Shown piece by piece: positions 1,422-18,820 of a stretch of DNA of 31,226 bases (positions are counted from its first letter, which is position 1; every line of letters starts with the position of its first letter). The position numbers were made by a program, and so were the translations under genes. The stretch comes from a virus (Duplodnaviria > Heunggongvirae > Uroviricota > Caudoviricetes). Location: the IMG/VR virus record IMGVR_UViG_2541047916_000004. One strand, given 5' to 3'. The notes beneath the pieces are model-generated. The model was not told the origin of the DNA, searched no databases, and saw only the letters and a program-made list of their open reading frames with translations.

Positions 1422-3893
1422 TTAAAAATCAGCCTGACTCGGGATCAGTTTTTGCCAGATAACTGAAACGTATTTTGCCTGGTAACGGGCGTCATCAAGT
1501 GCATTATGGCGCTCACCTTCGAATGGAATAGCCGTTCTGGCATCGAAGTCTATGGCTTTCCCCAGCTCAACGATTGTGCGTACATCGCGATCGTTGTAGT
1601 AACGCCACGGGCAGGGGATCCCCTGCCGTTCGTATGAACGGCGCAAAATCGTGTTGTCGAAGTTGGCTCCATTTCCCCAAACCTGAACAAAAAATTCACC
1701 GGAGTTTTCGTCGATAAATTCCCGCAATTGTAACAGTGCATCATCTAACGGGATTTCATCGGTCATAATGGCAGATTGCGCTTCGCGTGATTGCTTAAGC
1801 CACCATTTAATGGTGTCCCGATCAATGACTCCGCCAGCAGTTTCCAGATCGATAGTCTTACTAAATTCCGGTCCCATATCTCCGGTTTGCGGATCGAAAA
1901 ATATTGCACCTATTGAGATGATCGGGGCATCAGGATTTTTTCCCATGGTTTCAAGGTCGATCATTAGATGGTCACACGTCCTGCTGGTGGATGTGATTTC
2001 GTGATGACCGTTCACCTTAATTGAGCGATCTGCCGTCTCGCCAGTTTCATTATCGCTATCGTGATGCTGATTGCCGCCAGTGTTCTCCTTGTGTGGATGT
2101 TCAGCGCCTTCCATTTCCTCCGGATCATCTTCCTGAACTTCAACCTGATACTCTTCATCGAATGTTTCCTGGTATGTTGCGTCGCCCATCACCGCGCCAC
2201 AATCAGGGCAGTTGCCGCCGCCGGTCTGACCGCAGGCGGTGCAGACTTTTTCCACTTCCTGTTGCGCCACTGGTTCAGGCTGTTTCGTTTCTGGCTCGTT
2301 TTGTAACGCATTTGGGCTGTTTTGTTCCGCTTTTTGGTAGTTCCGTTCCGATTCATGCTGGTTCTGGTTCACAGAATCGCGGGTCTGGATCCCCTTAACC
2401 CATTTCGGATCATTCGGGTCACTAATCCCTTCAACAAATTCACCACGTGATGCAGCAAGCAACTTATCGGCGTCAGGCTGGCTGATATTGGCTGCCTGCA
2501 TAATTTTGTTTACTTCGTCAGCGGTAACTTTTATCGGCTCTGGTTGTTCTGAATCTTCAGCGGTATCTACATTTTGCGGTAAGCCCGTGTATGTGCCATT
2601 TTTTCGGGCAAAATATTCTTCTTTTGTGATTTCAGTGGCGCCAGCAGCCAGTGCCTTATCCAGACCAGAAAGTTTGTTTGCGCGACCGCATTTTTCTCCG
2701 TCCTTATCTGCGAAGAGGAAATAGAACGGCCCCTCACGCTCTACAGATGGTTCAGCTTCCGGCGCGGTTTCATTTTTTGGGATATCAGATACCTCAGTTT
2801 CCACTGCATCAGTTTGTGTTTCTGATGACTGGAGAACATCAACAGTGCCCAGGTCTGTTTCTTCATTCTCAAACACGCCCTTTGTCGTCAGGTATTCGCA
2901 GATATATTTGTTCAGTGCTATGGGATCTTTGTGAATGTCGATCGGACGCTCACGGACAAGGCCAAAAATAGTTTGGCGGTCGTAGCGAAGGGCATCAGGC
3001 TGTTTGCGCATTGATGCCGAGATACGCTTCCAGTCTTCGCGGTCGTTGTCGATAACTTCATTTTTTGCCCAGCGATGGATGCTGCCGTCAATGTTTCCGG
3101 CATCCACATCACCAGGCCAGAGAGCGTAGGCCAGTTCGTCATCCAGTGTTTTCCATGTCTGCTTGTATTCGCGATGAATGGCAGCAATGACCGGGCTGAT
3201 TTTTCCTGTTGAATTTTCACTGTGCTGTTGATTGGTTCTGGCGCGGGCGAGATCAATAACAGACGTGTATTTTCCGGTTTCCTTACGTTCACCTTCGCGA
3301 CGTTTTTTCCAGATGCGCATCTCTGCCTGAATTTCGGGCCATTTGGCACCAGGCTTACATTTATGCTTAACCCACCCGATGGCATGCAGCTTAAGCTCCG
3401 GATACATGGCGTTAACTTCTGGCATTTTCATCAACGCTTCAACGATATGTCCGTCGAATGTTGCCATGTCTTCCTGCAACAATTCCTGTGCGCTAATAAC
3501 CATATCAACGGTGATGTTTTCACATGTGTCGAACTTAACCATGACAGCGTTCTGTACTTCAGGGGCCAGCTTGTCAAAAGTGACGTTCATCGGATCGGAT
3601 TCAGTCTCAACCGGGACAAAGGAAGCAGACTCCTCATCCCAGCGGTTTTCCTGCATATATTCAGCATCCCAGGAATCGAGGGCAGGGCGGGGTATGCCGG
3701 GTTTATCCTCACAGACAATAAATTTATAAGCGCAGTCCTGAGCTGCAGGGAATTGCTCCAGAAATTGCCAATGAAATTTTGCGCGTGCGCGACGCTCATC
3801 ACCAGCTTCAATGGCAGTGGCCACCGCAACAGCGCTATCTTCTTTTATGGCCTGTTCATCAGGAATAGCAGCGCAAATAAAGACCTTACTCAT
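1422..3893 (-). CDS. Large phage exonuclease with C-terminal DnaQ-like DEDDh 3'-5' exonuclease domain
   Basis: 823-aa ORF; C-terminal 200 aa carry Exo I (MIDLETMG), Exo II (VWGNGANFDNT) and Exo III (HNALDDARYQ) motifs; acidic N-terminal region contains a CTACG...CPDCG zinc-ribbon-like motif. Confidence 0.75.
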   Translation of the reverse strand: MSKVFICAAIPDEQAIKEDSAVAVATAIEAGDERRARAKFHWQFLEQFPAAQDCAYKFIVCEDKPGIPRPALDSWDAEYMQENRWDEESASFVPVETESDPMNVTFDKLAPEVQNAVMVKFDTCENITVDMVISAQELLQEDMATFDGHIVEALMKMPEVNAMYPELKLHAIGWVKHKCKPGAKWPEIQAEMRIWKKRREGERKETGKYTSVIDLARARTNQQHSENSTGKISPVIAAIHREYKQTWKTLDDELAYALWPGDVDAGNIDGSIHRWAKNEVIDNDREDWKRISASMRKQPDALRYDRQTIFGLVRERPIDIHKDPIALNKYICEYLTTKGVFENEETDLGTVDVLQSSETQTDAVETEVSDIPKNETAPEAEPSVEREGPFYFLFADKDGEKCGRANKLSGLDKALAAGATEITKEEYFARKNGTYTGLPQNVDTAEDSEQPEPIKVTADEVNKIMQAANISQPDADKLLAASRGEFVEGISDPNDPKWVKGIQTRDSVNQNQHESERNYQKAEQNSPNALQNEPETKQPEPVAQQEVEKVCTACGQTGGGNCPDCGAVMGDATYQETFDEEYQVEVQEDDPEEMEGAEHPHKENTGGNQHHDSDNETGETADRSIKVNGHHEITSTSRTCDHLMIDLETMGKNPDAPIISIGAIFFDPQTGDMGPEFSKTIDLETAGGVIDRDTIKWWLKQSREAQSAIMTDEIPLDDALLQLREFIDENSGEFFVQVWGNGANFDNTILRRSYERQGIPCPWRYYNDRDVRTIVELGKAIDFDARTAIPFEGERHNALDDARYQAKYVSVIWQKLIPSQADF

Positions 3894-4362: not shown

Positions 4363-4933
4363 TATCGCGTCCTCAACAATGAATTTTGTGATGCAGTGCC
4401 TGGTGCCTCCAGGTGACGTTAACCAGTTAACAATTAACTCCGGGTTAGTTGATGCTCGTTACGCCCGTAAAATACCGCCTTACTGCTTTAACTGTTCCGC
4501 GTGCGCATAGCCGCATTCACCGCATCACAAAATTCACTTTAAAAAGGGCGGCAGAGCAGTCACGGAGTAAAACTGATACCGCCAAATGTCACCAGAAAAT
4601 TGATAACAGAGGGCGTTGTAGCGGGGTTGTCACTTAAGCGTATGGTCAACCTGACAACCCGGTGCATTTTCTGGAGCAATGGAGGAAACCCCAGCCATAC
4701 TTACCGCCGCGCCATTTCGCGGAGTGCCACAACCGGAAGCGCACGGTCGAACTAAATTTAACGACACCGTACAGAGAGACCAATTTCGCCGTGCGCTTTC
4801 GCGTTATGCCCTGACTTTTCAGGGACATATCCTTTCAGTAAGCTGTCAGTGCCGGATGCTCACCCGTGTCCGGCGCACGCACTCCACCTGACCCGTGGAG
4901 AACTCCTTAATTACCAACCCTCAGGAGGGTGAA

Positions 4934-11024: not shown

Positions 11025-11261
11025 TTTTATGGATCACCTTTCTGATTGATTTCATATTGGCGAGGTGACGTGAGTTAAGTAGAATGGCTGCGGGTGCTTG
11101 AGGCTATCTGTCTCAGGCATGAACACTGAAAGGCAGATAGAGAAAAGCCCCAGTTAACATTTCGCGTCCTGCAAGACGCTTAACATTAATCTGAGGCCCA
11201 ATCTATGTCTCACAAATGTAGGTTAGCCTCTTACGTGCCGAAAGGCAAGGGGAAGCAGGCT

Positions 11262-11417
11262 ATGAAGCAGCAAAAGGCGATGTTAATCGCCCTGATCGTC
11301 ATCTGTTTAACCGTCATAGTGACGGCACTGGTAACGAGGAAAGACCTCTGCGAGGTACGACTCCGAACCGGCCAGACGGAGGTCGCTGTCTTCACAGCTT
11401 ACGAACCTGAGGAGTAA
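11262..11417 (+). CDS. hok: Hok/Gef family type I toxin
   Basis: 51-aa peptide MKQQKAMLIALIVICLTVIVTALVTRKDLCEVRLRTGQTEVAVFTAYEPEE, near-identical to Hok/RelF-family toxins; the longer in-frame ORF from 11205 is probably an artefactual extension. Confidence 0.85.
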   Translation: MKQQKAMLIALIVICLTVIVTALVTRKDLCEVRLRTGQTEVAVFTAYEPEE

Positions 11418-14528: not shown

Positions 14529-15578
14529 ATGCTTAATACTGTAAAAATATCCAGTTGTGAGTTAATCAACGCCGACTGCCTGGAATTTATCCGGTCGTTA
14601 CCCGAAAATTCTGTTGACCTGATAGTCACGGACCCGCCGTACTTTAAAGTGAAGCCTGAGGGCTGGGATAACCAGTGGAAGGGCGACGATGATTACCTGA
14701 AGTGGCTGGACCAGTGTCTGGCGCAGTTCTGGCGGGTGCTGAAACCTGTCGGAAGTCTTTACCTGTTCTGTGGTCATCGCCTGGCATCTGATATCGAAAT
14801 CATGATGCGTGAACGCTTCAGTGTGCTGAACCATATTATCTGGGCGAAGCCGTCCGGACGCTGGAACGGATGCAACAAGGAAAGCCTGCGGGCGTATTTC
14901 CCCGCCACAGAGCGCATTCTGTTCGCGGAACATTATCAGGGGCCGTATCGTCCGAAAGATGCCGGGTATGCGGCGAAGGGCAGTGCACTGAAACAGCATG
15001 TGATGGCCCCGCTGATTTCTTACTTTCGTGATGCGCGCGCTGCCCTGGGGATAACGGCAAAACAGATTGCAGATGCCACAGGAAAGAAAAACATGGTGTC
15101 GCACTGGTTCAGTGCCAGTCAGTGGCAGCTACCGAACGAAAGCGATTATCTGAAATTACAGTCGCTGTTTGCCCGGGTGGCAGAAGAGAAACATCAGCGC
15201 GGTGAACTGGAAAAGCCCCACCACCAGCTGGTGGATACGTATACGTCACTGAACCGGCAGTATGTGGAGCTGCAGAGTGAATATAAGCATCTGCGGCGGT
15301 ATTTTGGTGTGACGGCGCAGGTGCCGTACACGGATGTGTGGACACATAAACCGGTGCAGTTCTATCCCGGGAAACATCCGTGCGAAAAACCGGCAGAAAT
15401 GCTGCAGCAGATAATCAGCGCAAGCAGTCGTCCGGGTGACCTGGTTGCAGATTTTTTTATGGGCTCAGGTTCAACGGTAAAAGCGGCACTGGCGCTTGGG
15501 CGTCGTGCGATTGGCGTTGAACTGGAGACCGGACGTTTTGAGCAGACAGTCAGGGAAGTTCAGGATTTAATCGTTTGA
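14529..15578 (+). CDS. Orphan DNA methyltransferase (beta-class N6-adenine or N4-cytosine)
   Basis: 349-aa ORF; DPPY catalytic motif near the N-terminus (LIVTDPPYF) and FxGxG AdoMet motif near the C-terminus (DFFMGSGST); no adjacent restriction endonuclease ORF. Confidence 0.85.
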   Translation: MLNTVKISSCELINADCLEFIRSLPENSVDLIVTDPPYFKVKPEGWDNQWKGDDDYLKWLDQCLAQFWRVLKPVGSLYLFCGHRLASDIEIMMRERFSVLNHIIWAKPSGRWNGCNKESLRAYFPATERILFAEHYQGPYRPKDAGYAAKGSALKQHVMAPLISYFRDARAALGITAKQIADATGKKNMVSHWFSASQWQLPNESDYLKLQSLFARVAEEKHQRGELEKPHHQLVDTYTSLNRQYVELQSEYKHLRRYFGVTAQVPYTDVWTHKPVQFYPGKHPCEKPAEMLQQIISASSRPGDLVADFFMGSGSTVKAALALGRRAIGVELETGRFEQTVREVQDLIV

Positions 15579-15627
15579 AACGGATGAGATTGCAGAATTA
15601 ATTACGCACCATTATTATTCTGCTCCC

Positions 15628-15703
15628 GGCCCTTTAGCTCAGTGGTGAGAGCGAGCGACTCATAATCGCCAGGTCGCTGGTTCAAATCCAGCAAGGGCCA
15701 CCA
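15628..15703 (+). tRNA. tRNA-Ile2-like (anticodon CAU; ileX/ileZ-type)
   Basis: 76 nt cloverleaf: acceptor GGCCCTT/AAGGGCC, D-arm AGCTCAGTGGTGAGAGC, anticodon loop CTCATAA, T-loop TTCAAAT, ACCA tail; closely resembles E. coli ileX. Confidence 0.85.
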
Positions 15704-15710
15704 TCACATA

Positions 15711-15787
15711 CCGCCATTAGCTCATCAGGAAAGAGCGCCAGCTTTCGAAGCTGGTTGCGCGGAGTTCGGGTCCCCGAAGGCGGTCCA
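15711..15787 (+). tRNA. tRNA-Arg(UCG)-like, possibly degenerate
   Basis: D-arm GCTC...GAGC and anticodon stem-loop CCAGC-TTTCGAA-GCTGG are clean; acceptor stem has one mismatch and the T-arm is non-canonical (loop TTCGGGT, mismatched stem). Confidence 0.45.
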
Positions 15788-15800
15788 TTATCTGTATCCT

Positions 15801-15877
15801 GCGTTGTTAGCTCAGCCGGACAGAGCAATTGCCTTCTAAGCAATCGGTCACTGGTTCGAATCCAGTACAACGCGCCA
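15801..15877 (+). tRNA. tRNA-Arg (anticodon UCU)
   Basis: 77 nt: acceptor GCGTTGT/ACAACGC, D-arm GCTC...GAGC, anticodon stem-loop ATTGC-CTTCTAA-GCAAT, T-arm ACTGG-TTCGAAT-CCAGT, GCCA tail. Confidence 0.85.
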
Positions 15878-15892
15878 CACTTATTTTCCCTG

Positions 15893-15918
15893 GCTCGCTT
15901 TTGCGGGCTTTTTTTAAA
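15893..15918 (+). terminator. Possible terminator after the tRNA cluster
   Basis: GGCTCGC-TTTT-GCGGGCT imperfect hairpin (G-U wobbles) followed by TTTTTTT. Confidence 0.35.
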
Positions 15919-15920
15919 TG

Positions 15921-16142
15921 TCTCACAATTCAGGCGGTTGACTGTTGTCTGGTTTGCGGGGAGTTTGTTAAAAGAAACTGGCATGGTGAATCCCCCTGTG
16001 CGGAGGGGCAATCAGCGAGTAGGTATATGGGATAATCGCGGATTCAGGTGCTGGTACTGAATTCACCGGGAGGCACCCGGCACCATGCAATGGCACATAG
16101 CGCCACTCTCCAGCCCCTCTCCGGAGGGGCTTTTCTGTGCCG
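15921..16142 (+). repeat. Copy A of a tandem paralogous hairpin-rich element (candidate sRNA unit)
   Basis: Shares with copy B the blocks CTCACAATTCAG..GTTGAC, GCATGGTGAATCCCCCTG(T/A)GCGGAGGGGC, GGTATA..ATAATC, TGAA(T/C)TCACCGGGAGGCACCCGGCACCATG and AGCCCCTCTCCGGAGGGGCTTT (terminator-like hairpin plus T-run); sequence between blocks differs. Confidence 0.45.
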
Positions 16143-16324
16143 GATACATCACAGTTTCTGGAACCTTAGGTACTACAGTATCAGTCAGGGTGCTATATTT
16201 TCAGATGTGATGAAAGCCTGTCAGCAGGCAGGGCGTATCGGAAATGACCCAGTAGAGAAAACGTTGACTCAGATACCGGTGCTGAGTTACCGGGAAACCG
16301 GCATCACATGACCGCTATCCTTCC

Positions 16325-16352
16325 AGGCCCATCCGCTCCGGTGGGCCTTTTT
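16325..16352 (+). terminator. Rho-independent terminator-like hairpin between the two repeat copies
   Basis: AGGCCCA-TCCGCTCCGG-TGGGCCT followed by TTTTT. Confidence 0.45.
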
Positions 16353-16390
16353 ACTGCAGAAAACAGGTTCCCCGTTAAATGCTATGTTGC

Positions 16391-16625
16391 TCACAATTCA
16401 GTAAGTTGACAGTTGCCTGTCAGACTGGGCATTTGTTAAAAAAATTTCGCATGGTGAATCCCCCTGAGCGGAGGGGCGACTGGTGACGGTATAATCTCTG
16501 ATTATCAAAACGAGAATGACGCGGGTTTAGTGGCACCGGGTTGAACTCACCGGGAGGCACCCGGCACCATGTGCATGATGATACAGATACGCGGCTTTAG
16601 CCCCTCTCCGGAGGGGCTTTCTTAT
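16391..16625 (+). repeat. Copy B of the tandem paralogous element (candidate sRNA unit)
   Basis: Same conserved blocks as copy A in the same order, including a perfect TATAAT (GGTATAATC) and the terminal GCCCCTC-TCCG-GAGGGGC hairpin followed by TTTCTT. Confidence 0.45.
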
Positions 16626-16629
16626 GGAC

Positions 16630-16658
16630 AAAAAAAGCCCGCGCTGGGAGACGCGGGC
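16630..16658 (-). terminator. Rho-independent terminator readable on the minus strand
   Basis: Minus strand reads GCCCGCG-TCTCCCA-GCGCGGGC followed by TTTTTTT (plus-strand A-run 16630-16636); lies back-to-back with the plus-strand terminator of copy B. Confidence 0.4.
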
Positions 16659-16851
16659 GGCAAGGAATAAACAATAAAACGTGAAGTAATATTTCAGCTG
16701 GCGAATAATACCCCATAGTAATCACTCTGCGCAACTGCGCGGTCTTTTTCGAATTGCGGGCTGTAGTCTCCCTTCTGCCATTGTCCTGTAACTTCCGGAC
16801 TTCAGCCTGCTCCTTATCTGACTCACAACATTATCCCGCCCGGGAGGATTC

Positions 16852-18705
16852 ATGGCATTTAAACACTATGACGTGGTCAGGGCGGCATCGCCGTCAGACC
16901 TTGCGAAACGACTGACACAAAAACTGAAGGAGGGCTGGCAGCCGTTTGGTAGTCCGGTGGCCATAACCCCTTATACCCTGATGCAGGCGATTGCAGCAGA
17001 AGGTGATGTGGTCGTCAGTGGTGCAACTGAGCCGGAGTGGTACTACGTCATCGTACTGGCCGGGCAATCCAATGCCATGGCTTACGGTGAAGGGCTTCCG
17101 CTTCCGGATTCATACGATGCGCCCCATCCGCGCATTAAGCAACTGGCCCGTCGTAACACAGTGACTCCCGGTGGTGAAGTATGCGTATTTAACGACATCA
17201 TTCCTGCTGACCATTGTCTGCATGATGTTCAGGATATGAGTACGATTAACCATCCCCGGGCTGACCTGAGCAAAGGGCAGTACGGCTGTGTCGGACAGGG
17301 CTTACATATTGCCAAAAAACTGCTTCCGTATATCCCTAATAATGCGGGGATCCTGCTGGTACCATGCTGTCGTGGTGGTTCGGCATTCACCCAGGGCACG
17401 GAGGGGACATTCAGCGAGTCCACGGGAGCCAGTCAGGATTCGGCTCGCTGGGGAGTGGGTAAGCCGTTATATCAGGATCTGCTTTTCCGCACGAAGGCAG
17501 CATTGCAGAAAAACCCGAAAAACGTTTTGCTGGCGATATGCTGGATGCAGGGGGAATTCGATATGACGAATGCCAGTTACGCCCAGCAGCCAGCAGCATT
17601 TCTTGCAATGGTACAGCAGTTCCGTGCTGACCTTGCCGGGCTGGCGGCGCAGTGTCACGGTGGAAGTCCGGCATCAGTCCCCTGGATTTGTGGCGACACG
17701 ACATACGCGTGGAAACAAGAACACGGTACGCAATATGAAGTGGTATATGGTGCATATAAAGGTAAAGAATCCCAGCAGATTTATTTTGTTCCCTTTATGA
17801 CCGATGGTAGCGGAGTTAATACACCGACAAACAACCCGTCAGAAGATCCTGATATTGCCGGGTCTGGTTATTACGGTTCGGCATCCCGAACGAACAAAAA
17901 CTGGGTATCATCAAATCGCCCGACGCATTTCAGCTCATGGGCGCGTCGTGGCATTATTCCCGATCGTATGGCAACTGCTATTCTGAACGTAGCCGGTCGC
18001 ACCTTAGCCTTCATTAGTGGTAAGGCACCGGAAATCAAACCCTCGCCCGGCGGCGACACGCCATCGGGGCCGTCTGAAGATGCATCCATACGCACAATCT
18101 CCCTGTTGCCGACAGCCGGAGACGCTGCTGCGCAGGGCTGGAGCATTAAGAATGGCGGAATTCAGTTGTCAGATGGTGTATTTAAGATCACCAAGCAGAG
18201 CAATAAAGCCTGGTCCCTGACGCGCCCGGTGGATGACGCAGTCTCCCTGCTGACACGGGGTGGCAGACTGAGCTGTAAGTTTCGACTGTCAGGCGCACTG
18301 ACCAACAACCAGTTCGGTCTGGGAATTTATCTGTATACCGATGTAGCGTTACCTGACGTCGTGGCGATGACCGGGACTGGTAACCCGTTCCTGATGTCGT
18401 TCTTCACCCAGACCACAGACGGCAAACTGAATCTGATGCATCACAAGAAAGCAGGAAACACAAAGTTGGGCGAGTTCGGGAATTACAGTAACGACTGGCA
18501 GACGCTGGAGCTGGTGTTCACCGCCGGCAGTGCCACGGTTACTCCGAAACTGAATGGAGTGGCTGGCCCGGCATTCCAGGTCATAAAAGACAGTCTGACA
18601 CTGGGGCTGAATGCGCTGACGCTGACGGATATTACCAAAAATGCAGCGTATGGCGTTGAGATAGAAAGTCTGGTGCTGGAGATAAATGCACCGGCATCAT
18701 CATAA
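16852..18705 (+). CDS. nanS: NanS-p-like prophage sialate O-acetylesterase (N-terminal DUF1737-like region plus SGNH-type esterase)
   Basis: 617-aa ORF with GGGAGG RBS; N-terminus MAFKHYDVVRAASPSDLAKRL... and esterase-like core (VLAGQSNAMAYGEG); occupies the position just downstream of stx in Shiga-toxin phages. Confidence 0.8.
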   Translation: MAFKHYDVVRAASPSDLAKRLTQKLKEGWQPFGSPVAITPYTLMQAIAAEGDVVVSGATEPEWYYVIVLAGQSNAMAYGEGLPLPDSYDAPHPRIKQLARRNTVTPGGEVCVFNDIIPADHCLHDVQDMSTINHPRADLSKGQYGCVGQGLHIAKKLLPYIPNNAGILLVPCCRGGSAFTQGTEGTFSESTGASQDSARWGVGKPLYQDLLFRTKAALQKNPKNVLLAICWMQGEFDMTNASYAQQPAAFLAMVQQFRADLAGLAAQCHGGSPASVPWICGDTTYAWKQEHGTQYEVVYGAYKGKESQQIYFVPFMTDGSGVNTPTNNPSEDPDIAGSGYYGSASRTNKNWVSSNRPTHFSSWARRGIIPDRMATAILNVAGRTLAFISGKAPEIKPSPGGDTPSGPSEDASIRTISLLPTAGDAAAQGWSIKNGGIQLSDGVFKITKQSNKAWSLTRPVDDAVSLLTRGGRLSCKFRLSGALTNNQFGLGIYLYTDVALPDVVAMTGTGNPFLMSFFTQTTDGKLNLMHHKKAGNTKLGEFGNYSNDWQTLELVFTAGSATVTPKLNGVAGPAFQVIKDSLTLGLNALTLTDITKNAAYGVEIESLVLEINAPASS

Positions 18706-18790
18706 AAAGTGAGCCAGCCAAATGGAAGGTATCGTTAAACTCACCGGTAGTGTCAGTGGGTCGTCTGAGACGCCTGCATGAGTTATCAGA

Positions 18791-18820
18791 GCCATCAGTA
18801 CTTAACTGGTGGCTTTTTTT
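18791..18820 (+). terminator. Rho-independent terminator after nanS-p
   Basis: GCCATCAG-TACTTAA-CTGGTGGC (one G-U wobble) followed by TTTTTTT. Confidence 0.5.

Follow-up and report, generated by a model that had tools for sequence, protein, structure and literature searches.

A probable 'sRNA dyad' locus with three tandem STnc100-family genes between the tRNA genes and nanS-p of a lambdoid prophage

The window, that is the whole stretch of viral DNA that was analysed (31,226 nucleotides), contains a gap of about 0.97 kb between prophage tRNA genes and nanS-p which is densely packed with regulatory RNA genes. Its placement directly after the tRNA cluster and before nanS-p is as given in a first-pass annotation made from the sequence. 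Genes for a Q antiterminator, a methyltransferase and the tRNAs lie upstream, and genes for a SASA esterase, a holin and a lysozyme downstream, which places the locus in a lambdoid prophage late region, as is typical of STnc100 genes. The layout recurs in the prophages Sp4, Sp5 and Sp17 of E. coli O157 Sakai. The site had been called the position at which Shiga-toxin phages carry stxAB; Stx phages carry stxAB together with one such unit (in Sakai Sp5 an STnc100 unit directly follows stx2B). The RefSeq record of the CE10 locus annotates none of the four RNA genes (0/4). The features are:

15628-15877: tRNA(CAT)/Arg/Arg genes, upstream of the repeat locus
15922-16009 and 16390-16477: 88-nt repeat block, 80% identical
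15923-15933, plus strand: conserved upstream box TCACAATTCAG of unit A, with an exact copy at 16391-16401 and the variant TCACAGTTTC at 16149-16158
15945-15973, plus strand: candidate promoter P2 of unit A (TTGTCT 15945-15950, 17 nt, TTAAAA 15968-15973)
15952-16142, plus strand: unit A, STnc100-family sRNA gene (Rfam 136.3 bits, R1 183 bits)
16058-16087 and 16542-16571: 30-nt repeat block, 97% identical
16112-16133 and 16599-16620: 22-nt terminator block, 100% identical
16112-16137, plus strand: intrinsic terminator of unit A from the terminator scan (stem 16112-16131, then TTTTCT)
16190-16357, plus strand: unit M, divergent third member (closing helix AUGUGAUG/CAUCACAU, three internal hairpins, terminator 16325-16348)
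16191-16199, plus strand: extended -10-like box TGcTATATT of unit M, identical in the M variant of phage PhiR5_2 (86% identical)
16380-16401, plus strand: possible upstream promoter P1 of unit B (TGcTATGTT 16380-16388, then the TCACAATTCAG box 16391-16401)
16413-16441, plus strand: candidate promoter P2 of unit B (TTGCCT 16413-16418, 17 nt, TTAAAA 16436-16441)
16420-16629, plus strand: unit B, STnc100-family sRNA gene (Rfam 160.4 bits, R1 174.6 bits; terminator stem 16599-16618)
16630-16698, minus strand: convergent sRNA gene, putative dyad partner, from the terminator scan (terminator 16658-16637, U-run to 16630)
16705-16734, minus strand: promoter-like elements of the minus-strand sRNA (TTGCGC 16734-16729, 18 nt, TATTAT 16710-16705), kept in PhiR5_2
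16852-18705: nanS-p, SASA esterase, downstream of the repeat locus

The repeat search recovered three blocks, in identical order in copies A and B, which lie 468-487 nt apart from start to start, in agreement with the repeated element with shared, ordered blocks described in the first-pass annotation. Every hairpin named there was also found in the sequence. The CCCCC-N6-GGGGG hairpin corresponds to helix 2 and the CCGGG-AGGCA-CCCGG hairpin to helix 5 of the family fold, and GCCCCTC-TCCG-GAGGGGC with its T-run was identified as an intrinsic terminator by the terminator scan, in which 10 terminator-like sites were found compared with 1.8 expected from shuffles. The count of two copies had to be revised, since the third, divergent unit M fills part of the spacer of about 250 nt between them. 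The 'perfect TATAAT' of copy B is present at 16490-16495, but it sits in a variable, non-conserved internal loop of the RNA with no conserved promoter position, and was rejected as a promoter.

Units A and B both matched the Rfam family STnc100 (RF02076, curated gathering score 47 bits) over its full length, 1-206 (E 3.5e-30 and 2.3e-36, respectively). They are thus copies of an already catalogued prophage sRNA gene, known in E. coli O157 as EcOnc05, EcOnc06 and EcOnc27 (sRNA103), with which they share the fold, the sequence blocks and the prophage site, which follows the tRNA/stx 'moron' slot and precedes nanS-p. The window differs from O157 in having three tandem units rather than one, in a unit B with its own 3' variable stretch and in a unit M too divergent for the Rfam threshold. 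With 30.1 bits (E 5e-5), M falls short of membership as Rfam defines it and counts as a structural relative. The covariance model R1, which was built without M, gave it 33 bits (E 1.5e-6); M was detected by covariance models only and was not found by a sequence-only profile. In a short-pattern scan of genome contigs with GCATGGTGAATCCNCC, the matches listed (80) were chance matches in unrelated bacteria, with 0 profile matches. The 5' leader of the units was also considered as a DicF-like module ('dicF plus spacer') and rejected, local alignment scores being no better than those of shuffles; Rfam DicF had no match in the region.

One fold is kept over 30 diverse members, each <93% identical. 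In their alignment 97.2% of the cells are paired and both-side, compensatory changes occur at 15/37 pairs, including changes in helices 6 and 7 of the terminator region; 0/500 shuffles were as high and slid controls were 37-48% paired. Folded singly, A, M and B share one layout, consisting of a closing helix, internal hairpins and a terminator. This covariation, together with the Rfam matches, supports the earlier interpretation of the repeats as paralogous sRNA units under structural selection. The accompanying statement that the late regions of EHEC prophages encode regulatory sRNAs also proved correct, as EcOnc05 of O157 Sakai gives an Hfq-bound RNA. Between the window and PhiR5_2 the scaffold is kept and the internal loop and 3' stretch are exchanged wholesale, unit B of PhiR5_2 bearing an A-type 3' stretch.

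Unit A has 100% identity with the EcOnc05 locus of Sakai Sp4 from TCTCACAATTC through GGAGGGGCTTT, and the published EcOnc05 northern probe is exactly complementary to positions 16010-16044 of the window. The EcOnc05 RNA was Hfq-crosslinked, passed CRAC in 5/5 data sets and gave a northern signal of ~222 nt, and EcOnc27, the copy after stx2B, was Hfq-dependent (Tree et al. 2014). In EDL933, 11 STnc100 copies are transcribed, one of them northern-confirmed. By analogy with these identical or related genes, the units of the window would be expressed and bound by Hfq. The U-tails of A (UUUUCU) and B (UUUCUU) are short, interrupted and weaker than typical Hfq-binding tails. Unit B resembles EcOnc27 of the Stx2 phage Sp5 in its 5' half, as judged by alignment.

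Upstream of the units, TTGYCT and TTTGTTAAAA are conserved among family members. The TTGAC box, earlier regarded as promoter-like, is probably not a -35 element and was rejected as such, since its distance from the conserved TTAAAA is 24-25 nt and PhiR5_2 does not keep it, in contrast to TTGYCT 17 nt before TTAAAA. From P2 of unit A, transcription is predicted to start at ~15980, at the base of the closing helix. Most of 61 distinct regions upstream of family members retain the TCACAATTCAG box, which is also conserved between the window and PhiR5_2. It represents either the 5' leader of a long RNA form (~222 nt) or a site of control at the DNA level. A start near this box, and not P2, would account for the EcOnc05 and EcOnc27 bands on northern blots (222-247 nt), whereas EcOnc06 (177 nt) fits P2 better. 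A start at P1 of unit B would yield an RNA of ~228 nt, in line with the larger sizes. The 5' end of PasD, a related RNA, starts at the equivalent CGCATGG, as estimated from RNA-seq coverage.

Unit M, in the middle of the row of three, is a previously unannotated, divergent copy of the family. It was found in 673/5426 complete E. coli genomes (about 12%) and directly after an A-type unit in every locus sampled; among the matches listed, no gene annotation lay beneath the M-only matches. Its helices carry compensatory changes relative to A, B and PasD, and also between its own two variants. These are 86% identical overall and keep every helix, and about 100 central nucleotides are nearly invariant. 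Hairpin 1 is GCCUG(UCAG)CAGGC in one variant and CUGCC(GGAA)GGCGG in the other, and the terminator has been reshaped, with an indel of 4 nt. Together with the minus-strand partner, M brings to at least two the RNA genes that escape threshold-based Rfam annotation.

The minus-strand element has 29/30 identity with the EPEC RIL-seq sRNA E2348C_1409.E2348C_1408.IGR, occupies a position homologous to the Hfq peak EcOnc08 of Sakai Sp4 and has an MFE z of -3.0. It is conserved in PhiR5_2, with changes mostly in the terminator loop. The published EcOnc08/21/42 probe overlaps the promoter-like stretch at 16705-16734 (28/31), so that in Sakai a longer transcript also crosses it, and the element may form the 3' portion of an antisense RNA that extends further. 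A weak similarity to OmrA/B (25.2 bits, E 0.038, threshold 40) was treated as chance.

With this convergent gene closing it, the locus, which lies between the late promoter and the lysis genes, matches the published arrangement of an 'sRNA dyad'. In the dyads EcOnc27/AsxR, EcOnc06/AgvB and EcOnc05/EcOnc08 (Tree et al. 2014), as in the window, a forward STnc100-type gene faces a minus-strand sRNA, with back-to-back terminators at the same site. The window differs in that its forward member is triplicated and its partner is of the EcOnc08 / EPEC-IGR type, rather than of the AsxR/AgvB anti-sRNA type of 51-60 nt. AgvB and AsxR (RF02702, RF02703) had no Rfam match in 15500-17000 at E up to 10, their published sequences had no BLAST match in the window, and their conserved 3' region of ~42 nt (…GUAUCUCAUGC…UUGCCCGAACCCAYUCGGGC) is not present in the minus-strand element.

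The same 5' scaffold, consisting of the closing helix, a GAAUCC hairpin, a middle hairpin and a GGGAGGC hairpin, is found in PasD1 and PasD2 of EPEC E2348/69 (EcOnc13 in Sakai), which, like the array of the window, sit directly upstream of a sialate esterase gene. R1 gave 49.5-49.8 bits for both, the common part being the 5' scaffold only, and common ancestry of PasD and STnc100 has already been proposed (Zhu, Shabalina and Storz, bioRxiv 2026). PasD1 and PasD2 are Hfq-dependent, have RIL-seq targets and carry an inferred seed, UGUGAG, in a 3' single-stranded stretch. This seed belongs to another, longer 3' domain with its own terminator, and neither is found in A, M or B; PasD2 gave no BLAST match in the window, and in the alignment the 3' domain had no counterpart in the three units. 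PasD copies are reported to be dispersed and not tandem. A search for PasA or PasC between nanS-p and the holin gene gave no BLAST match. OmrA/OmrB, PrrF1/PrrF2 and the Qrr set are likewise neighbouring paralogous sRNA genes, conserved in part and divergent in part. They are, however, chromosomal core genes with the seed as the common part, whereas in the window the structural scaffold is common, the putative seed differs and the copy number varies between prophages. Related prophages have arrays of 1-4 units, and Sakai Sp4 has the body of A joined to the tail of B at the identical 22-nt terminator.

Given the family membership, fold, array and array variability observed in this analysis, the gap is interpreted as an 'sRNA dyad' locus of three head-to-tail STnc100-family genes (A, M and B) and one convergent minus-strand sRNA gene. 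A probability of about 0.8 is assigned to this reading as a whole, including trans-acting, Hfq-bound RNAs and recombination of the array. Each forward unit would give an RNA of ~150-230 nt with a common scaffold, in which an 8-bp closing helix encloses three or four hairpins; a single-stranded stretch specific to each unit (15-27 nt, at 16088-16111 in A, 16310-16324 in M and 16572-16598 in B) and a Rho-independent terminator would follow. In the lysogen, putative sigma-70 promoters belonging to the units themselves most likely drive their transcription, and the RNAs most likely bind Hfq and base-pair in trans with host or prophage RNAs, a mechanism that is inferred, as are the promoters and the position of the seed. 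As the inferred seed of PasD lies in the variable stretch before the terminator, that stretch probably sets the choice of target, in which case the three units would have different targets. The array would grow, shrink and swap modules through recombination, with the conserved blocks of scaffold and terminator as the sites of exchange. The effects of EcOnc27/sRNA103 reported for fimZ and espA are indirect only, and no STnc100 member has a validated target in the literature.

That only A and B are functional, M being a pseudogene decaying after duplication, would agree with its Rfam score below 47 and with a similarity to the rest of the family that a sequence-only profile does not detect. It is considered unlikely, because M comes with a good terminator and a box of the extended -10 type, persists in 673 genomes, and keeps all helices in both variants, even where hairpin 1 has been swapped and the terminator rebuilt. 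The near-invariant ~100 nt of M also speak against a still less probable reading, in which the units act mainly in cis and the RNAs are by-products. Here a stack of terminators would insulate nanS-p and the lysis genes by blocking lysogen transcription from the tRNA genes and the late promoter, to be read through by Q-modified polymerase after induction. Three plus-strand terminators do stand in a row (16112-16131, 16325-16348 and 16599-16618), the last back to back with the minus-strand terminator, and the site is flanked by the Q gene / late promoter on one side and the holin gene on the other. However, whereas ~30 nt suffice for a terminator, compensatory changes preserve 130 nt of scaffold upstream of it, and homologous RNAs are Hfq-bound with RIL-seq partners. 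The terminator-stack and sRNA roles are compatible rather than exclusive.

Less probable than either is that the units are dual-function or coding genes for small peptides, for example from the 87-aa ORF at 16048-16311 or from short ORFs after GGGA near 16030, despite ribosome footprints seen on some of the STnc100 copies of EDL933, with coverage ratios of up to 3.2, a listed Shine-Dalgarno sequence of those copies, 'tatgggata', that occurs in copy A, and hypothetical ORFs annotated at the locus in RefSeq and phage records. The five ORFs had no Pfam family (best E 0.054, far below the cut-off), which also led to rejection of a decayed protein gene, and they differ between copies, in keeping with the first-pass view that the region has no convincing coding ORF. 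Moreover, the family alignments contain 1- and 2-nt indels in hairpin loops, the variable stretches differ in length by other than multiples of three, and substitutions track base pairs and not codon positions.

For the preferred reading of the array as sRNA genes, a broader and more tentative extension, somewhat less than evenly balanced, is that the STnc100 fold is a reusable RNA chassis which prophages duplicate and recombine, and which includes the M subfamily and a terminator-less copy that makes up the dicF-dicB spacer of Qin-type prophages, K-12 included. If so, arrays of the A-M-B type would deliver several different seeds on one scaffold, and the scaffold would have a function of its own, such as a protein-binding or processing platform, common to the sRNAs and the dicB leader. 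The likeness to the dicF-dicB spacer would provide a K-12 system for study of the scaffold, and arrays with swapped variable stretches are a natural experiment for seed finding. Pathogenic E. coli are rich in members of the STnc100/EcOnc family, with 11 copies in EDL933; the family adjoins stx2 and has a statistical link to clinical outcome (PMC12711010).

The two hairpin-rich copies A and B, which the first-pass annotation had read as paralogous small-RNA transcription units of a family it could not name, were examined by repeat search and by scanning the whole window against Rfam 15. The copies were real repeats, with three blocks in the same order in both, 468-487 nt apart (88 nt at 80 % identity, 30 nt at 97 % and 22 nt at 100 %). 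All three hairpins listed earlier are present, and the last of them scores as an intrinsic terminator in A and in B; terminator-like sites are enriched (10 observed versus 1.8 expected in shuffles). Both copies matched the family RF02076, "Gammaproteobacterial sRNA STnc100" (gathering score 47), at full length:

15952-16142, unit A, full-length RF02076 match, 136.3 bits, E 3.5e-30
16420-16629, unit B, full-length RF02076 match, 160.4 bits, E 2.3e-36

A covariance model built in this analysis (R1) from 27 family members with less than 93 % mutual identity gave 183 bits for A and 175 bits for B when the whole window was searched without filters.

Hfq was crosslinked to RNA in O157:H7 Sakai by Tree et al. 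(2014, PMC4104026), who reported the orphan peaks EcOnc01-55. The locus in Sakai prophage Sp4 has 100 % identity with copy A from TCTCACAATTC through the terminator stem, and the published northern probe for EcOnc05, an RNA of ~222 nt that passed in 5/5 CRAC data sets (Tree et al. 2014, PMC4104026), is the exact complement of 16010-16044. The probe for EcOnc06 (Sp17, ~177 nt, PMC4104026) matches 16023-16053 at 31/31 positions. EcOnc27, which is sRNA103 in EDL933 and is the family copy located after stx2B in the Stx2 phage Sp5, ran at ~235 and 247 nt, the longer form being destabilised without Hfq. Copy A contains exact matches to the qPCR primers with which "STnc_100" was measured in vesicles of STEC, and EDL933 has 11 Rfam-annotated STnc100 copies, all transcribed, with northern confirmation for one. 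Since A is identical to the Sakai EcOnc05 locus and both copies are full-length RF02076 matches, the paralogous small-RNA reading was correct, the family being STnc100 (EcOnc05/06/27). A and B belong to a curated, experimentally observed family, and the finding is therefore rated as already known. Family membership, fold, array structure and array variability come from this analysis; expression and Hfq binding come from published work on EcOnc05, identical to copy A, on related copies such as EcOnc27 and on PasD. A third unit, a convergent partner, the plasticity of the array and the resemblance of the dicF-dicB spacer are modest extensions beyond the known family.

Related loci (at least 120) were retrieved from IMG/VR with a 20-base motif, family members were located with nhmmer, and 30 representatives with less than 93 % identity were aligned. 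In the RNAalifold consensus of these members 97.2 % of the cells were paired and 15 of 37 pairs had changed on both sides. Cells with changes on both sides numbered 58, versus 11.7 expected, none of 500 shuffles scored as high on any measure, and sliding the 3' partners by 1-3 columns lowered the paired cells to 37-48 %. The family fold is thus under selection, as had been suggested from the shared structural modules. Folded singly, A, B and the third unit again have this arrangement (MFE z-scores -2.2 to -2.9).

This third, divergent unit, M, occupies the apparent spacer between the two copies, and was detected both with Rfam at permissive thresholds and with R1. The Rfam STnc100 model matched 16181-16354 with 30.1 bits at these thresholds (E 5e-5 over 291 nt and 2.6e-4 over 1.5 kb), and R1, from whose training set M and PasD had both been left out, matched 16194-16355 with 33 bits (E 1.5e-6, whole window, no filters). 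A sequence-only profile made from the same set gave no match to M, so the resemblance of M to the family is structural. In the alignment M has the closing helix AUGUGAUG/CAUCACAU where A and B have GCAUGGUG/CACCAUGC, CUCAG/CUGAG in place of the middle hairpin UUCAG/CUGAA, and a shorter CCGG/CCGG in place of the CCGGG/CCCGG hairpin; the terminator of M consists of AGGCCCAUC…GGUGGGCCU followed by UUUUU. M also has:

16191-16199, extended -10-like box of M, TGcTATATT

In a set of 5426 complete E. coli genomes M is present in 673, the type strain being one of them. It occurs as two variants, with at least 99 % (345 records) and ~86 % (327 records) identity to the window. No gene is annotated at 39 of the 40 M-only matches listed, the remaining one, a partial match, being a hypothetical protein. 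Between the variants a central part of ~100 nt hardly differs, hairpin 1 is GCCUG(UCAG)CAGGC in one and CUGCC(GGAA)GGCGG in the other, and the terminator has been remade, with an indel of 4 nt. These differences are consistent with a functional RNA and not with decay of the copy.

From 5' to 3' a unit consists of the TCACAATTCAG box, TTGYCT/TTAAAA, a scaffold that would be the structural body common to the units, a unit-specific single-stranded stretch of 15-27 nt (CAAUGGCACAUAGCGCCACUCUCC in A, GACCGCUAUCCUUCC in M and UGCAUGAUGAUACAGAUACGCGGCUUU in B) and the terminator. The 5' elements are:

15923-15933 and 16391-16401, conserved box TCACAATTCAG, 5'-most part of the unit; variant at 16149-16158
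15945-15973 (A) and 16413-16441 (B), candidate promoter P2, TTGYCT, 17 nt, TTAAAA

P2 is plausible as a sigma-70 promoter, from which the RNA would begin at the base of the closing helix. The TTGAC box regarded earlier as promoter-like is probably not its -35, being 24-25 nt from TTAAAA and not kept in the comparison phage PhiR5_2, whereas TTGTCT is kept there. The estimate of the PasD 5' end from RNA-seq coverage agrees with P2, to which EcOnc06 at 177 nt is a rough fit; the EcOnc05/EcOnc27 forms of 222-247 nt require a start near the TCACAATTCAG box, just 5' of which lies a -10-like hexamer (TTAAAT in A, TGcTATGTT in B). Both candidate starts may be used.

Many E. coli strains, e.g. meningitis strain CE10 and APEC O18, have chromosomal prophages with 99.9 % identity to the region 15880-16860. 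The order in CE10 is RusA, antiterminator Q, a hypothetical gene, DNA methyltransferase, tRNA-Ile(CAT), tRNA-Arg, tRNA-Arg, a 0.97-kb gap, a SASA-family esterase (nanS-p), holin and lysozyme, and the locus is a lambdoid prophage late region. The gap is empty in RefSeq apart from one minus-strand pseudogene, labelled as a partial "hypothetical protein". ARAGORN found three tRNAs at 15628-15877, of which that at 15628-15703 (anticodon CAT) is called Met; the identical gene is tRNA-Ile in RefSeq (ileZ-type, presumably lysidine-modified), with which the earlier naming of an Ile/Arg cluster agrees.

PasD1 and PasD2 of EPEC are Hfq-dependent, northern-validated sRNAs with RIL-seq targets (Pearl Mizrahi et al. 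2021). PasD2 is directly upstream of the esterase gene and PasD1 directly upstream of the holin gene, so that both occupy the same late-region slot. They have the scaffold in common with the STnc100 units, as seen with R1 (49.5-49.8 bits) and in the alignment, but differ from A, M and B in having their own 3' domain, with the seed UGUGAG. According to Zhu, Shabalina and Storz (2026 preprint), PasD and STnc100 are of common ancestry, and the PasA and PasD copies are dispersed and not in tandem; the EcOnc names, dicF and dicB are not mentioned in that preprint.

The tandem arrays vary. In Sakai Sp4 the body of A is fused directly to the tail of B at the 22-nt terminator block identical in the two, and a single recombination between these blocks would interconvert the window array and the Sp4 form. 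Among the loci listed (at least 120 from IMG/VR plus reference loci, a motif-chosen and thus biased sample) there were 105 single units, 10 A-M-B and 6 A-M-A arrays, one A-Sp5 pair, one B-B pair and one four-unit array. This last array, the largest among the loci listed (L129, IMGVR_UViG_2861053794_000003, 2268-3368, minus strand), has four tandem STnc100-type units with R1 scores of 131, 114, 98 and 86 bits. Recombination also occurs between the 5' and 3' halves of units: one comparison locus (L195) has a B-type 5' half and an A-type 3' stretch, another (L138) has the reverse, and the 3' stretch of unit B of PhiR5_2 is A-like.

Judged from PasD and from Hfq-dependent sRNAs in general, the region that pairs with targets would be the single-stranded stretch just 5' of the terminator, and A, M and B would be three regulators acting in trans, with different targets, made in the lysogen. 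Once the prophage is induced, transcription by Q-modified polymerase would continue through the units. The units may also act in cis as a stack of terminators ahead of the lysis genes, a role that leaves the conserved scaffold unexplained; it is compatible with an sRNA role, and the two may coexist.

On the minus strand a terminator (16658-16637, U-run to 16630), 5 bases past the terminator tail of B, ends a conserved segment which coincides with the Hfq peak EcOnc08 in Sakai Sp4 and whose final 30 nt have 29/30 identity to the EPEC Hfq RIL-seq sRNA E2348C_1409.E2348C_1408.IGR. The segment is preceded by:

16734-16705, minus strand, promoter-like TTGCGC, 18 nt, TATTAT; predicted RNA ~68 nt

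The published EcOnc08/21/42 probe overlaps this promoter and detected ~271 nt (Tree et al. 2014, PMC4104026), so that in Sakai there is, in addition, a longer antisense RNA extending toward the nanS-p start. The forward/reverse pair in the window corresponds to the "dyad" of Tree et al. (PMC4104026) and a later review, present in at least 8 Sakai prophages. An AsxR/AgvB type was ruled out for the minus-strand partner, with no Rfam match at E up to 10 and no BLAST match.

A third instance of the CTCACAA box is found at 16822-16828 (+), with ATTATC at 16830-16835, ~25 nt before the start codon of nanS-p (ACTCACAACATTATCCCG), and is present in Sakai Sp4 and Sp5 too. A minus-strand promoter-like ATGCCA-17-GATAAT overlaps it, and the box may be the start of a long antisense RNA (EcOnc21-like) or a common control site. 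Between the minus-strand sRNA promoter, whose -35 it overlaps, and nanS-p there is a terminator-like hairpin (16727-16742, +; CTGCGCAACTGCGCGG, then TCTTTTT), kept in Sakai Sp4, Sp5 and Sp17. Another, AGCCATCAGTACTTAACTGGTGGC followed by TTTTTTT (18790-18820, +), is located after nanS-p and before the holin gene; in EPEC this slot is taken by PasA or PasC, encoded on the other strand, and no PasA match was found in this slot of the window.

On the minus strand R1 also matched 4545-4372 with 45.7 bits (E 1.6e-9), the spacer that separates DicF (4597-4546, Rfam 77 bits) from a dicB-like ORF (4362-4174); the Rfam STnc100 model scored 27.7 bits there (E 3e-4). The dicF-dicB spacer of K-12 Qin (L248, 936-1100) scored 54.2 bits with R1, above PasD. 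The closing helix GUGAUGYGGUG/CACUGCAUCAC is present, the hairpin ACCUGGAGGCACCAGG is compensatory to ACCGGGAGGCACCCGG, and the spacer folds like the STnc100/PasD scaffold but without a terminator; no mention of this resemblance was found in the papers examined. With this DicB-like ORF of 62 aa after the DicF sRNA (4546-4597, minus strand), the prophage carries a dicBF cell-division-inhibition module. A full-length match to the Rfam sok antitoxin at 11092-11267 (+, 120.5 bits) implies that the prophage also has a toxin-antitoxin locus of the hok/sok type.
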